The notes beneath the pieces were generated by a model, which searched no databases, was not told the origin of the DNA, and saw only the letters and a program-made list of their open reading frames with translations. From NCBI GenBank assembly GCA_030745755.1, contig JASLOA010000007.1:11974-75973 (forward strand): a stretch of 64,000 bases of DNA, given 5' to 3'. The position numbers and the translations under genes are program-made. Below are positions 29,066 through 61,535 of this stretch, one piece after another. The stretch is from Kiritimatiellia bacterium. Lineage in GTDB: Bacteria; Verrucomicrobiota; Kiritimatiellia; UBA8416; JABMPJ01. Position 1 is the stretch's first letter; each line of letters starts with the position of its first letter.

Positions 29066-29308
29066 ATGAGCACAGCGAAAATCGCAATCACAATGGAAGA
29101 GAGTCTGGTCTCACAGGTGGACCGACTTGTCTCGTCACACATCTACCCCAGCCGCAGTCGAGCCATTCAAGAAGCAGTGGCCGACAAGCTACACCGCTTG
29201 GATCGTCGCCGCTTGGCGCGCGAATGCGCCAAGCTCGACCCACAGTTTGAACAAGCGATGTCGGAAGAGGGAATGGGTTTGGAGGTAGAGGCATGGCCAG
29301 AGTACTGA
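29066..29308 (+). CDS. CopG/RHH-type antitoxin (MazE/PemI-like)
   Basis: 80 aa. N-terminal ribbon-helix-helix region [18 protein letters not shown]. Overlaps the toxin gene. Confidence 0.7.
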
Positions 29309-29655
29309 GGGGAGATATCTTCTGGGCTGACCTCAATCCAACCAGGGGACATGAGCAAGCGGGGCTGCGCCCAGTGCTCATTCTCAGCGAAGATGTATTT
29401 AACAACCGTTCTGGGACGGTCATAGCCATTGCTCTGACAAGTCAACCGCAGCGTGCGGGCTTCCCGCTGACACTTGAACTGTCGAGTCCAAGACTCCCCA
29501 AACGCTCATGGGCAAAGATCAGCCAGGTCCGCACGTTGTCGGTCCAGCGTCTCGGGAAGAAGATTGGGAAAGCGTCCTCTGATGAACTCGACCACATCAT
29601 TGAAGGACTCAATGAGCTGATCGGGGGCCAACAAAGCCCTCGACCATACCGTTGA
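29293..29655 (+). CDS. mazF: MazF/PemK-family endoribonuclease toxin
   Basis: [27 protein letters not shown]... is the typical MazF/PemK N-terminus. Confidence 0.8.
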
Positions 29656-29704
29656 CAGCCGCTCAGAAGCGGCTGTCAACGTCTGGTCAGGGCACGCGTT
29701 GTGC
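29651..29704 (+). other. attC-like / terminator hairpin region (unresolved) ending G|TTGTGC
   Basis: Perfect 12-bp stem GTTGACAGCCGC-tcagaa-GCGGCTGTCAAC, then CAGGGCAC-gcgtt-GTGCCTG. Core sites are present (TGTCAAC, GTTGTGC) but the canonical R''/L''/L'/R' layout is unclear. Confidence 0.35.
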
Positions 29705-29717
29705 CTGAGATAATGAG

Positions 29718-29996
29718 ATGAACAGACAATCCAATCAGGAATTCATCGTAGCTGGAGTAGCTGGCGTCACCGGCATATTCATTTTGGCTATGTCGTGGTC
29801 TGAGTTCAAGACAGTGGCAGAGGATCACCCCACCATCAGTGTCTTCACTTTGGGCCTGACTCTCCTCTTTATGGGGGCAGCGAATCTTTCAACAGGACTC
29901 AAGAGGCGGCTTTGGCTTAAACAGATGAAGACACTGGGGAGCACAACAACCGAATCCACCTTATCACCTGAAGGCGCGCCTTCAGATGAAAGGTGA
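29718..29996 (+). CDS. small membrane protein (2 TM), hypothetical
   Basis: 92 aa with two hydrophobic helices. Confidence 0.45.
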   Translation: MNRQSNQEFIVAGVAGVTGIFILAMSWSEFKTVAEDHPTISVFTLGLTLLFMGAANLSTGLKRRLWLKQMKTLGSTTTESTLSPEGAPSDER

Positions 29997-30010
29997 TTCC
30001 CACGTTAGCC
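29941..30010 (+). other. attC site (R'' GCACAAC ... R' GTTAGCC)
   Basis: Internal palindromes ATCACC/GGTGAT and TGAAGGCGCGCCTTCA. Overlaps the end of the upstream ORF. Confidence 0.5.
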
Positions 30011-30021
30011 ATACGAGGAAG

Positions 30022-30819
30022 ATGAAGAACTGTTTGAAGGCATGCCTCACTTGGTTGATGAACCGCCGGCCGCGGTTCTATCTCGGTGCTTACGTCGTCG
30101 TCATCCTTGCATTTGCACTCGCGTTCAGCCTTCTTAAGCGTCAGTTCTACCACCCGTATTTCAGGCACGAGGCGTCCTTCCAAGAAGCCACATGCGAACT
30201 CAGAGACAAGTTGACCCCTGCGTTTCAGCACGCTCTTTCTGAGCGCGCCGAAATGCTTCGCGACAAGAAGGTCTACCCAGAGAAGACATGGTTGCGCGAC
30301 TTCCGTGTCGGTGAAGACGCCGTCCACTTCTCAATCCTAGTCGAGATCAGGGAGAGCGATGAGGGTTTCGGGAAACGTCGCTGGATTCCGTGCCGGCTGA
30401 CTCCGGATTTTGCCTTCGATTACAGATACAAGGAGCTCACGGCTGACCATGTCATTCACCTCTCCCCGGAACTTGATTTTGTCCGGAACCCTTCGGATTC
30501 CGGCCCGTGGAGCAGATCCGAGCTGGACCCGATCCTTCGCCTTATGTTGAACCGGATTGAGGTTGACGGAAGAACGGTAGCGGAAATGCAATCACTCTTT
30601 GCTGCCGACAAAGGCATCCCTTCCGGCATTCGGGGTAGTTTCCCCCGAATGCTTTACCTCAGTGTTGTCACGATTACTACGCTTGGCTATGGCGACATCA
30701 TCCCTGTTGGCAATTGGGCACGATTCTTGGTCGGTTGTGAATCTGTTCTTGGTGTGATCCTGCTCGGATTCTTTGTTAGCAGTGTCTGGTCAAGGAGCCG
30801 AAAGAAGGAAAATGGCTAA
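30022..30819 (+). CDS. K+-channel-like pore protein (TTLGYGD selectivity-filter motif)
   Basis: N-terminal TM, a ~150-aa domain, then a pore helix, the filter VVTITTLGYGDIIP and a final TM (ARFLVGCESVLGVILLGFFV). Confidence 0.6.
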   Translation: MKNCLKACLTWLMNRRPRFYLGAYVVVILAFALAFSLLKRQFYHPYFRHEASFQEATCELRDKLTPAFQHALSERAEMLRDKKVYPEKTWLRDFRVGEDAVHFSILVEIRESDEGFGKRRWIPCRLTPDFAFDYRYKELTADHVIHLSPELDFVRNPSDSGPWSRSELDPILRLMLNRIEVDGRTVAEMQSLFAADKGIPSGIRGSFPRMLYLSVVTITTLGYGDIIPVGNWARFLVGCESVLGVILLGFFVSSVWSRSRKKENG

Positions 30820-30877
30820 CCAGAGCCTGGAGGATATCGTCGCTAACCGCGCCGAATCCTCAGGCTGATCGTTGGAA
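30814..30877 (+). other. attC site (R'' GGCTAAC ... R' GTTGGAA)
   Basis: L boxes CAGAGCCTGGAGG / CCTCAGGCTG, with an extrahelical base. Confidence 0.6.
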
Positions 30878-30888
30878 CTGAGAGAAGA

Positions 30889-31113
30889 ATGGAAACACCA
30901 AATCAGATTGCACACGGTCTCGGCGCGTTCCTGATTGCTATTCTCGTCACCGGCTTTGTGGCAAACGTCTTCGTGACTAACATTCCCGCACATGCCGAAC
31001 GGTTCGCCACCGGAGGCATTGGTCTCGGTGTGTTTGTCATCGTGTGGTGGATTTCATACGCCATCAGCATCCGGGCAGCCAGAAGGCGCAGCCGATCGAA
31101 GTCAGCGGAATGA
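30889..31113 (+). CDS. small membrane protein (2 TM), hypothetical
   Basis: 74 aa, two TM helices, basic C-terminus. Confidence 0.4.
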   Translation: METPNQIAHGLGAFLIAILVTGFVANVFVTNIPAHAERFATGGIGLGVFVIVWWISYAISIRAARRRSRSKSAE

Positions 31114-31122
31114 ACACAGGAG

Positions 31123-60144: not shown

Positions 60145-60158
60145 TGCGCAAAAACAGA

Positions 60159-60187
60159 TTGACGCGACCCTCGCACGTAATTACATT
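60159..60187 (+). promoter_or_regulatory. cassette promoter TTGACG-17-TACATT overlapping near-perfect palindrome ATTACATTGTAAT
   Basis: Upstream of the mazE-like gene (ATG at 60194). Confidence 0.5.
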
Positions 60188-60193
60188 GTAATC

Positions 60194-60448
60194 ATGAAAG
60201 CAACCCTTGTTAGAATCGGCAACAGCCGGGGCATTCGCCTACCAAAACCGGTGATTGAGCAGTGCGGTTTCGAGAACGAAGTCGAGATGGAGGTGCATCA
60301 TCACGAGTTGGTGATCCGCTCCTCCGCGCAACCGCGCGAAGGCTGGGCTGGCGCATTTGCCCGCATGAGCGCATCCGGCGACGACGAACTCCTCGACCGC
60401 GTCGCGGAGACAGGACCGACGTGGGATGAGAAGGAATGGGAATGGTGA
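60194..60448 (+). CDS. mazE: AbrB/MazE/SpoVT-family antitoxin
   Basis: MKATLVRIGNSRGIRLPKPVIEQCGF, swapped-hairpin beta-barrel signature. Confidence 0.75.
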   Translation: MKATLVRIGNSRGIRLPKPVIEQCGFENEVEMEVHHHELVIRSSAQPREGWAGAFARMSASGDDELLDRVAETGPTWDEKEWEW

Positions 60449-60765
60449 CCAACCGTTTTGATGTCTTCCTTATTTCGCTCGACCCGACGCGTGGAAGCGA
60501 GATCCGAAAGACTCGTCCCTGCCTCATCATCTCGCCCAACGAGATGAACGACCATATCAGGACCGTCATCGTCGCTCCGATGACGACCAAAGGTAGGCCA
60601 TACCCCAGCCGTGTGTCATGCACGTTCCAAGGCAAACGCGGGCAAGTCGTCTTGGACCAGATTCGGACGGTGGATAAGACACGCCTGGTCCGCAGGCTCG
60701 GCACCATCTCCTCCGGTGTTCAGGGCAAGGTTCTAGACGCCTTGCAGGAGATGTTCACACGATAG
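60436..60765 (+). CDS. mazF: MazF/PemK-family toxin
   Basis: RFDVFLISLDPTRGSEIRKTRPCLIISPNEMNDHIRTVIVAPMTT. Confidence 0.8.
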   Translation: MGMVTNRFDVFLISLDPTRGSEIRKTRPCLIISPNEMNDHIRTVIVAPMTTKGRPYPSRVSCTFQGKRGQVVLDQIRTVDKTRLVRRLGTISSGVQGKVLDALQEMFTR

Positions 60766-60771
60766 GAAGGT

Positions 60772-60830
60772 ACCCAACCTGCGCGTCCACCGTACGCGCT
60801 ATTCGCGCGCCGGTGACGCAATCGTTGGGC
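60772..60830 (+). other. attC site (R'' ACCCAAC ... R' GTTGGGC)
   Basis: ccaccgtacgcgctattcgcgcgccggtgacg. Confidence 0.6.
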
Positions 60831-60846
60831 CGGAGATAAGACATAA

Positions 60847-60875
60847 TTGACAATATGTACCGACTTCTGTACACT
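60847..60875 (+). promoter_or_regulatory. cassette promoter TTGACA-17-TACACT with TGTACActccTGTACA operator-like repeat
   Basis: Upstream of the phd/vapB-like gene (ATG at 60899). Confidence 0.5.
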
Positions 60876-60898
60876 CCTGTACAGATTAGAGGAAGAAC

Positions 60899-61138
60899 AT
60901 GACAACCGTAACTCTGACGGATTTCAGAAGTCACGCATCAGGTATGCTGACAAGAGTAGAACAAGGAGAGACCCTTGTGGTGCTTCGTCACGGGCGACCT
61001 ATTGCCGAAGTGTCGCCTGTTACCTGGCCGCACAGCGGTCAGCCTTCCTGGAAACGACAAGCTCTCCGCCTGTCGACCAAGGGGGCGGGGCTTTCCTCGG
61101 CCATCCTTGAGGATCGGGATCATGAAGACATTTCTTGA
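60899..61138 (+). CDS. Phd/YefM-type antitoxin (VapB role)
   Basis: MTTVTLTDFRSHASGMLTRVEQGETLVVLRHGRPIAEV. Confidence 0.7.
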   Translation: MTTVTLTDFRSHASGMLTRVEQGETLVVLRHGRPIAEVSPVTWPHSGQPSWKRQALRLSTKGAGLSSAILEDRDHEDIS

Positions 61139-61535
61139 TTCATCTGCTTTCGCAAAACGGTTTGTGGATGAAGCCGGAAGCGACAAGGTCGAGGATACCT
61201 GCGCCCAAGCCTCGGATCTTGGTCTGAGTGTGGTTTGCGTACCCGAGATCATTTCTGCGCTCAACCGTCGCCGAAGAGAGAGATCGCTAACGGCTGCTCA
61301 ATACACAAAAGCAAAGCAACAACTCCTTGATGATGTCCGCGATGCGGACATCATCCACCTTGCGGTGCCCGTGGTGGGCTCAGCCATCGGCGTTCTTGAG
61401 GCAAGCCCAGTCCGCGCCATGGATGCCTTGCACATAGCCTGCGCGCTGGAGTGGGGAGCAGAGCTGTTTGTCTCTTCAGATAGGAAACAGCTGAGCGCCG
61501 CTCGGCGCGCAGGACTGAAAACGCATGCAGTCTAG
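61122..61535 (+). CDS. vapC: PIN-domain toxin
   Basis: MKTFLDSSAFAKRFVDEAG... 137 aa PIN fold with acidic residues. Confidence 0.75.
   Translation: MKTFLDSSAFAKRFVDEAGSDKVEDTCAQASDLGLSVVCVPEIISALNRRRRERSLTAAQYTKAKQQLLDDVRDADIIHLAVPVVGSAIGVLEASPVRAMDALHIACALEWGAELFVSSDRKQLSAARRAGLKTHAV

Follow-up and report, generated by a model that had tools for sequence, protein, structure and literature searches.

An integron cassette array in a Kiritimatiellia bacterium with 25 predicted type II toxin-antitoxin modules

Introduction

What kind of genetic element would gather some two dozen two-gene modules of the type II toxin-antitoxin (TA) kind within about 33 kb, and what might hold them there? The question is raised by a 64,000-nucleotide stretch of DNA from a Kiritimatiellia bacterium (GenBank assembly GCA_030745755.1, contig JASLOA010000007.1, positions 11,974 to 75,973 of the forward strand), which is referred to here as the window. 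An earlier note, made from the sequence alone, had proposed about 25 TA modules in positions 29066-61535, arranged as cassettes, and all 25 pairs were indeed found where it had placed them. As documented below, the interval is the cassette array of an integron, with some 43 attC sites that delimit some 42 cassettes, and we consider it highly probable that the region as a whole is the array of a sedentary chromosomal integron in which 24 cassettes carry 25 type II TA operons whose loss is penalised. TA operons as integron cassettes are already well known, and no new kind of system is revealed by this locus; what goes beyond the routine is their density, the Verrucomicrobia-related lineage, and a few components without a Pfam or NCBIfam match.

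Results

The interval is an integron cassette array

Between roughly 28 and 62 kb of the window the G+C fraction drops from ~0.61 to ~0.53, and the plausible genes of this interval are nearly all on the plus strand. Repeat analysis of the array revealed families of repeated elements, 50-80 nt long and of the pattern AAC...GTT, whose bottom strands folded into single imperfect hairpins with bulged bases, as attC sites should. Two search procedures were discarded: a regular-expression finder that demanded complementarity of L'' and L' recovered almost no sites, because extrahelical bases break the register, and an unconstrained scan for AAC...GTT hairpins produced 96 candidates, including sites in the flanks, and was too noisy. 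The noise was cured by limiting the scan to single hairpins and then using a covariance model, R1, which was built from 24 aligned attC sites and run over the full window with filters off.

R1 returned the 24 training sites and about 19 further ones, i.e., about 43 attC sites of 49-82 nt, of which 40 scored at E<=0.17 and three were weak (E 1.4-3.8). All of them lie on the minus strand and within 28926-61812, and outside these limits R1 gave nothing better than E=0.7 in the 64-kb window. The stems covary, with compensatory changes at 12 of 18 pairs and a covariation score of 0.367 as against 0.114 in shuffles (none of 500 shuffles equalled it), and slid registers all scored far lower. Two sites retrieved by R1 only, at 32977-33035 and, weakly, at 29941-30010, each divide an apparent single cassette in two, and in the distal sites at 53165-53214, 61543-61592 and 61762-61812 the R' box is degenerate. 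Since the covariance-model sites are confined to this interval and to one strand, the stretch 28926-61812, with the minus strand as the recombinogenic bottom strand, is an integron array, to which the folds and the G+C drop also point. When the attC sequences were clustered, TA and non-TA cassettes were not separated, and there is thus no sign of a different origin for the TA cassettes.

The array has its own integrase. The IntI gene is located at 27362-28678 (minus strand), at the proximal end of the array and divergent from the cassettes; the protein is 438 amino acids long as called in public assemblies, and its open frame runs on to 28840. It scored 431 bits against TIGR02249, the NCBIfam integron integrase model with a cut-off of 265, through residues 128-437 and profile positions 4-313 of 315, and Pfam recognised Phage_integrase and SAM_4 domains in it. 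The claim that the modules are cassettes is thus borne out by an integron integrase and some 43 co-oriented attC sites with covarying stems. The genes flanking IntI are of the housekeeping kind (dapA, dapB, folK, panB, guaA, miaA and lspA) and no transposase was seen in the window, which, together with contigs of 66-184 kb, places the integron in a chromosomal, non-mobile setting. A sedentary integron has been defined by the presence of >10 cassettes (10.1101/2022.08.03.502626), and the 43 sites in a single orientation are well within this class.

Several features of the integrase and its surroundings were observed in passing. A ~127-amino acid N-terminal extension (window 28298-28678, minus strand) precedes the TIGR02249 match. 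It is conserved within a clade, because the tblastn matches of many relatives, found in Desulfobacterota, Gammaproteobacteria, Verrucomicrobiota and Kiritimatiellae metagenome-assembled genomes (MAGs), begin at residue ~43-61 of the open reading frame (ORF); other homologs align only from residue ~179. Sequence searches of Pfam and the PDB returned no match to the extension. The interval 28679-28930 was inspected by eye and by a repeat scan, and neither an attI site nor a cassette promoter (Pc) could be assigned in it. A hairpin resembling attC (33 bits, E=9e-6) is found at 28930-28999, ~250 nt from the IntI start and directly 5' of the first TA cassette. Either the short 28679-28930 interval contains attI, in which case the first cassette would be almost empty, or the hairpin stands in for attI. 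Scans of the full 64 kb for Rfam families and tRNAs found nothing. Among GTDB representatives, the closest integrase, with 83% amino acid identity, belongs to a Verrucomicrobia MAG, and its locus shares no flanking synteny with ours; hence, it offers no homologous array for comparison.

In metagenomic data such as these, assemblers could in principle be misled by the attC repeats, so that the array might be an artefact of assembly or binning, in which unrelated TA fragments were joined through the repeated sites. Exact-protein look-ups, however, retrieved the same locus on contig JASMKX010000012.1 (114 kb) of assembly GCA_030749005.1, on contigs of 66 and 184 kb from metagenomes of the Joint Genome Institute (JGI), and on contigs from Logan/SRA; the source metagenomes are JGI 3300035205, 3300035206 and 3300035250 and SRR25584963 and SRR25584943. 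Over the parts in which these independent assemblies overlap, which jointly span window positions 23890-57838, they are colinear with the window and 99.97-100% identical to it, and a chimera is therefore excluded for this span. The same order thus recurs in the NCBI MAG, JGI and Logan/SRA over all parts compared, on contigs of up to 184 kb; moreover, the attC sites all point the same way and the G+C shift is uniform over the array. Overall, an artefact is extremely improbable.

The modules belong to recognised toxin and antitoxin families

The 25 two-gene modules occupy 24 of the ~42 cassettes, the first beginning at 29066 and the last ending at 61535; 24 are on the plus strand and one on the minus strand. 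In every pair the two genes, coding for 54-161 amino acids, are adjacent and co-directional, and they overlap by 1-50 nt in 23 of the pairs and are 1 and 5 nt apart in the other two. The earlier note had made its proposal depend on profile searches assigning the small ORF pairs to TA families. It was found that 43 of the 50 ORFs match such families directly in Pfam at E<=0.01, and that five more can be placed by way of their homologs, by transitive similarity or by fold. The Pfam gathering score was exceeded by 22 of the 25 toxins, counting the predicted toxins DUF4160 and DUF5615, and by 15 of the 25 antitoxins. The remaining three toxins are C7a, with 24 bits against a cut-off of 34.5, C30c, assigned by its homologs, and C35a, assigned by fold; among the partners, eight more are sub-threshold or transitive assignments, and two (C25a and C30d) have none. 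TA components account for 50 of the 67 array proteins, whereas the 24 genes called in the 27-kb left flank include none (Fisher p=2.5e-11). The family counts given earlier held in all but two points: the RelE/ParE pairs with a ribbon-helix-helix (RHH) partner number two and not three, and the 25th module is a pair of a PIN protein and a 54-amino acid protein (52511-53150).

Four modules combine a MazF/PemK toxin with an RHH, an AbrB-MazE or a family-less partner. They are C1 (29066-29655; RHH antitoxin at 29066-29308 and MazF/PemK at 29293-29655, PemK_toxin 8.5e-31), C25 (48853-49370; a 67-amino acid partner and a divergent MazF/PemK-like toxin, PemK 1.5e-5), C32 (54401-54945; RHH_1 4.3e-6 and PemK 8.7e-18) and C37 (60194-60765; AbrB-type MazE_antitoxin 2.4e-5 and PemK 3.5e-30). 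The RHH assignment of C1a was made by its 33% identity to the RHH_1 antitoxin C32a in BLASTP and by weak RHH_1/RHH_8 matches (E=0.04); an NCBIfam search of the ORFs missed by Pfam found nothing except weak NikR-type RHH matches for this same protein. Four further modules pair BrnT with BrnA or CopG: C7 (33072-33639; BrnT_toxin 5e-5 and the BrnA-like CopG_antitoxin 7e-6, both just under the Pfam cut-off), preceded by the attC site at 32977-33035, C18 (41636-42131; BrnT_toxin 1.3e-20 and BrnA 6e-4), C29 (51343-51853; BrnT 2.3e-23 and BrnA 1.4e-17) and C30a/b (52002-52479; BrnT 5.9e-24 and a CopG-type BrnA, CopG_antitoxin 1.3e-7).

HicA with a HicB-like partner occurs three times, in C17 (41015-41391; HicB_lk_antitox 3.2e-6 and HicA_toxin 5.9e-13), C21 (45617-46017; HicA 5.9e-9) and C33 (55018-55469; HicA 2.8e-12). 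The partners C21a and C33a were recognised as HicB-like by a BLASTP chain leading to C17a (C21a to C17a at 3e-8, C33a to C21a at 3e-12) and by weak HicB_lk/UPF0150 matches (UPF0150-like 0.0085 for C33a). The HicA of C17 (41221-41391), whose gene is uncalled in one public annotation, is 56 amino acids long and matches the first 42 of the 58 profile positions, and its C-terminus may be cut short.

The RelE superfamily is the most varied. YafQ with DinJ/RelB is found twice, in C8 (33759-34303; RelB 1.2e-9 and YafQ_toxin 3.4e-31) and C23a (46836-47368, followed by an attC at 47376-47428; RelB 8.3e-10 and YafQ 5.3e-30), and seven further pairs stand beside these. Two are ParE_toxin-type pairs with an RHH antitoxin, C9 (34463-34928; weak RHH_5/RHH_1 and ParE_toxin 1.7e-10) and C12 (36593-37106; weak RHH_5 and ParE_toxin 1.6e-7). 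The others are C10 (35021-35646; RelE-type toxin PF06296 2.6e-6 and an XRE-HTH antitoxin, HTH_3 3.5e-10 and MqsA_antitoxin 1e-6), C23b (47482-48106; HigB-like Gp49 toxin 6.8e-19 and an XRE-HTH antitoxin, HTH_3 5e-13), C27 (50155-50744; HigB-like_toxin 7.8e-20 and HigA, HTH_3 5e-7), C24 (48230-48732; Phd/YefM, PhdYeFM 5e-17, and YoeB 1.3e-8) and C35 (57211-57826; an 88-amino acid toxin without Pfam match and an XRE-HTH antitoxin, HTH_3 8.8e-14). The C35 toxin is named RelE in the JGI annotation, and a PDB sequence search gave a weak YoeB hint. Its AlphaFold (AF2) model, with a predicted local distance difference test (pLDDT) score of 83, was compared with the PDB by Foldseek, and only RelE-superfamily toxins (YafQ/YoeB/RelE/HigB) were on top, at a template modelling (TM) score of ~0.65, including YafQ 9lew_B and YoeB 7v6w. 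Judging from this model, C35a appears to be a toxin of RelE-superfamily fold that Pfam does not recognise.

Three pairs have a PIN toxin: C11 (35761-36413; PIN_3 1.6e-18 and a HicB/Arc-type RHH antitoxin, HicB 9e-6), C38 (60899-61535; Phd antitoxin, PhdYeFM 2.7e-8, and VapC, PIN 8.1e-9) and C30c/d (52511-53150; a PIN/VapC-family protein of 161 amino acids and a conserved 54-amino acid partner, in the same cassette as C30a/b). C30c has >4000 homologs, several of them named VapC family toxin and many with PF01850. A PIN/VapC-family gene (160 amino acids) with an overlapping ORF of 54-68 amino acids recurs with the same 11-nt overlap in unrelated contexts (L089 909-1575 and L093 2501-3179). The small partner has a conserved motif, MKxDxIL.ELW..KD..S.E...LFDRL, and lies downstream of the PIN gene, not upstream. 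The two single modules are DUF4160-DUF2442 in C6 (32146-32680; DhiT-like toxin, DUF4160 1.2e-16, and DUF2442 3.7e-8), whose DUF4160 protein matches NCBIfam toxin_DhiT at 5e-24, under the equivalog cut-off, and DUF433-DUF5615 in C26 (49451-50030, minus strand; 1.1e-15 and 1.7e-5), a predicted TA pair and the sole inverted cassette.

The two partners that lack a family, C25a (67 amino acids, 48853-49056) and C30d (54 amino acids), gave no Pfam or NCBIfam match, and PDB sequence searches returned nothing usable for C25a or for C30c. More than 1200 metagenome homologs of C25a exist, Kiritimatiellae and Spirochaetaceae among their sources; the best 120 are 73-96% identical, and none of these 120 has a Pfam domain or a functional name. 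Its AF2 model shows a small N-terminal part rich in beta structure and a helical tail that is poorly predicted, an architecture that would be antitoxin-like, as far as a model with a pLDDT of 66 can tell. A structure search with this model was dropped as too uncertain at that score.

The cassette at 51933-53214 was found to hold two modules, BrnTA and the PIN pair, 31 nt apart and with no attC between them in the R1 scan, and the attC that closes it has a degenerate R' box, with GTA in place of GTT. From these sequence features, it may represent two cassettes that fused after loss of the intervening attC.

The leaders of TA cassettes are rich in promoter-like sites and palindromes

The earlier note had further claimed that many modules possess their own promoter and an operator palindrome. 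The median distance from the preceding attC to the start codon is 66 nt in TA cassettes as against 16 nt in the others, and leaders of ~16 nt leave no room for a promoter. By the stringent sigma70 criteria of the scan tool, applied to the plus strand and to be read with the caution that the host's own consensus may differ, a promoter-like site was present in 11 of 23 TA leaders and in 1 of 17 non-TA cassettes (Fisher p=0.004). When the TA leaders were shuffled with their dinucleotides preserved, 0.88+-0.93 such sites were obtained, and none of 1000 shuffles reached 11. Of the 23 TA leaders, 9 contain a perfect inverted repeat whose arms are >=6 nt long, compared to 2.4+-1.5 in shuffles (1 in 1000). 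The claim thus stands, at the level of sequence, for about half of the modules, and the rest fail the scan.

The repeat occupies the promoter spacer or overlaps the -10 in C8, C9 (5-nt arms), C29, C37 and C38. Specifically, C8 has a 7-nt inverted repeat in the spacer of its site at 33719-33748, C29 a palindrome ATACAT-A-ATGTAT in the spacer at 51308-51336, C37 a palindrome ATTACA-T-TGTAAT over the -10 at 60159-60187, and C38 an 8-nt inverted repeat over the -10 at 60847-60875. The leader of C30a/b contains a perfect consensus, TTGACA-16-TATAAT, at 51965-51992, and further promoter-like sites precede C6 (32094-32122), C9 (34408-34436), C21 (45566-45594), C25 (48807-48835), C27 (50087-50130, several) and C32 (54335-54363). 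In C1, the palindrome GTATGA-N7-TCATAC covers a -10-like TATTAT that failed the promoter scan; C12 has an 8-nt perfect inverted repeat upstream, at 36516, without a promoter-like site; the leader of C7 carries the palindrome TGCGCA-TG-TGCGCA; and C24 is preceded by a 12-bp palindrome, TAGCGTACGCTA. Overall, the overlapping gene pairs and the excess of sigma70-like sites and inverted repeats would be consistent with autoregulated operons.

Cassettes without TA modules

The remaining cassettes encode, among others, sulfatases, a GH39-like protein and a beta-helix protein; many sulfatases are typical of bacteria of the Planctomycetes-Verrucomicrobia-Chlamydiae (PVC) group. Sulfatase genes are located at 39459-40880, 44032-45456, 46097-46696, 53242-54303 and 61596-61799, and comprise two full-length cassettes and three fragments, one without the N-terminal part, one C-terminal only and one N-terminal only. 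Four of the five, the exception being 46097-46696, are followed by the same type of attC (AACAAAGCGTTGCACAGCGACGCGGTAAACCGCGCG...), and in the fragments C31 and C39 translation of the attC forms the C-terminus of the protein (..QRRGKPRA and ..QRHGKPGA). The shared attC type and the attC-encoded C-termini suggest cassette genesis or truncation at attC sites within the lineage.

A 221-bp cassette at 37191-37411 has no credible ORF; a promoter-like TTCACG-18-GATAAT (37183-37212) is situated at its start and points to the next cassette, which encodes the 560-amino acid beta-helix protein. Gene-less cassettes bearing promoters have reportedly been described in a study of Vibrionaceae, and this cassette resembles them. 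Other non-TA products are a 506-amino acid protein (55550-57070) without a Pfam or NCBIfam match and a 277-amino acid protein (29986-30819) with a C-terminal potassium-channel-type pore domain of two transmembrane segments (Ion_trans_2). The cassette at 57882-60130 contains two genes, for a PfkB-family kinase and an ADP-ribosylglycohydrolase.

Discussion

A possible mechanism of array stabilisation

The highly probable reading given at the outset, namely a sedentary chromosomal integron with TA operons that are costly to lose, can be set out as a chain of steps. Each module would be transcribed from its own promoter, independently of Pc, as known members of these families are. The antitoxin, of the RHH, XRE-HTH, Phd/YefM, AbrB/MazE, HicB or BrnA type, would bind the palindrome and repress the operon, and would also neutralise the toxin, which by family is mostly a predicted RNase or translation inhibitor (MazF, RelE/YoeB/YafQ/HigB, HicA, BrnT or PIN). 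If a TA cassette were lost through attC x attC excision or as part of a larger deletion, the labile antitoxin would decay and the freed toxin would arrest or kill the cell, as in Vibrio cholerae, where excision of TA cassettes has been found to kill, a phenomenon termed 'abortive cassette excision' (10.1101/2022.08.03.502626, published as Sci Adv 2024; PMC11023631). By the same analogy, TA cassettes would penalise cassette loss, lock the array in place and select for low rates of excision.

The arrangement of the modules bears directly on this. They make up 57% of the cassettes (24 of ~42), with 0.76 modules per kb, about 1.16 TA genes per attC site and a mean spacing of 1.3 kb, and the largest TA-free gap in the array is 3.9 kb; almost any multi-cassette deletion would therefore remove a module, and about 57% of single-cassette excisions would do so. 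Modules of the same family share only 22-64% identity in BLASTP, and their recurrence is thus due to independent acquisitions or to divergence long ago rather than to recent duplication. The divergence is relevant since in V. cholerae the killing effect of TA cassettes is lost when they are duplicated (PMC11023631); the diverged modules of the present array are probably insulated from one another.

Several points weigh against so strong an interpretation. The stabilisation mechanism is carried over to this lineage by analogy with V. cholerae, and the toxicity of the toxins, like the function of the promoters and operators, is predicted. Some components look weak from their sequences and may have decayed, namely the BrnT of C7, below the Pfam cut-off, the short HicA of C17 and the marginal PemK of C25. 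DUF433/DUF5615 is a predicted TA pair, and the DUF4160 protein remains below the DhiT equivalog cut-off. Lastly, about half of the TA cassettes fail the stringent promoter scan, the consensus of which may not be that of the host.

TA cassettes would be costly to lose and the others free to go, an asymmetry that would explain how TA cassettes come to dominate an old array. A purely selfish ratchet would take this as the entire story, the cassettes having piled up only because they cannot be lost, with no benefit to host or integron and perhaps in partial decay. The marginal or short components would suit it, as does the share of 57%, compared with ~11% in V. cholerae N16961 (19 TA cassettes among 178 cassette features) and much less in related arrays, and TA cassettes have indeed been termed "selfish, parasitic entities" by Ghaly et al. 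(PMC10661359). Nonetheless, most of the proteins span their hidden Markov models (HMMs) end to end and homologs of 73-96% identity are widespread, which favours purifying selection over decay; besides, the ratchet is compatible with the stabilisation reading, addiction and array stabilisation being one molecular event seen from two sides. We regard the purely selfish version as a serious contender, with the balance leaning somewhat against it.

It could also be asked whether the array serves mainly as a defence store, its modules acting in abortive infection or its antitoxins countering the toxins of invading elements. A description of chromosomal integrons as biobanks of defence systems has been published (10.1101/2024.07.02.601686), and an anti-addiction role of cassette antitoxins has been discussed (PMC10661359, PMC9668308). 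When all 67 array proteins were analysed by PADLOC, however, most matches were to generic models of the HTH/XRE type (RmrA, capH, control protein, HTH_VI), with single matches to NsnC and to two candidate families, PDC-M64C and PDC-M69A, and no defence system was recognised. A defence store is thus an unlikely primary role.

An extension of the stabilisation reading is offered tentatively, and we hold it to be doubtful: that this integron is among the most TA-saturated described and near the 'frozen' end state of a TA ratchet, its shuffling largely lost, and that C25a (with a divergent MazF) and C30d (52986-53150, with a 160-amino acid PIN protein, in reversed order) represent new antitoxin families. 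In such a saturated array, most integrase-mediated excisions would be harmful, since more than half of the cassettes would be addictive. If the abortive cassette excision model is true, 57% addictive cassettes would mean very strong selection against integrase activity, and the array would be a natural test case for how evolvability is traded against stability in integrons. The array also offers 25 compact TA modules for functional work, including the putative RelE-fold toxin outside Pfam and two uncharacterised partner families.

Comparison with known systems

The density was compared with that of ten related integron arrays, taken as 84 kb upstream of IntI homologs with 150 ORFs, in which R1 detected attC sites on the expected strand. 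At least nine toxin-family matches were found in them (ParE 4, HicA 3, HigB 2). Fifteen ORFs resembled TA proteins of the window in a search that also took in L016 and L017, and 13 of these 15 lie in the ten arrays. The related arrays thus have at least roughly 0.1-0.2 modules per kb, as against the 0.76 of the present one.

The best studied counterpart is the superintegron of V. cholerae N16961 (Iqbal et al. 2015; Richard et al. 2024). Both are chromosomal, with scattered attC-bounded TA operons that have, or are predicted to have, their own promoters; the families overlap (HigBA, ParDE/RelBE, Phd and DhiT/DUF4160-type), and the role is in both cases presumed to be stabilising, through killing on cassette loss. 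They differ in that the TA share is ~5 times higher here, the array is much smaller (33 kb, 43 attC sites), and the host is apparently a relative of the Verrucomicrobia. Furthermore, the attC sites are short (~50-80 nt) and not of the V. cholerae repeat (VCR) type, only one TA cassette is inverted, IntI has the ~127-amino acid N-terminal extension, and MazEF, BrnTA and HicAB dominate. More generally, the TA cassettes of chromosomal integrons have been reported to carry their own promoters and to be enriched in such integrons (246 of 398 genomes; 10.1101/2022.08.03.502626).

A closer likeness in composition is the cluster of attC sites lacking an integron integrase (CALIN) of Halorhodospira halochloris (PMC7923331), in which most ORFs are toxins or antitoxins, BrnTA recurs, and a promoter is predicted upstream of each TA operon. 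That CALIN is small, however, with 5-6 TA systems, three of them BrnTA, has no neighbouring integrase and is interrupted by group II introns (PMC7923331), whereas the array described here belongs to a complete integron and has four to five times as many modules.

In cassette metagenomes, promoter-bearing TA cassettes and the abundance of TA systems are documented (PMC7370490, PMC10661359, PMC9668308), and TA systems, including BrnTA, RelBE, ParDE, HigBA, YoeB/YefM and HicAB, are among the commonest annotated functions (PMC7370490). Such catalogues (Buongermino Pereira et al. 2020, PMC7370490; Ghaly et al. 2023, PMC10661359) pool single cassettes, unlike the present locus, where 25 modules are found in one contiguous and repeatedly assembled array. 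The link between TA cassettes and chromosomal integrons, experimental in Vibrio, is thereby extended to a Verrucomicrobia-related integrase lineage, at about five times the density.

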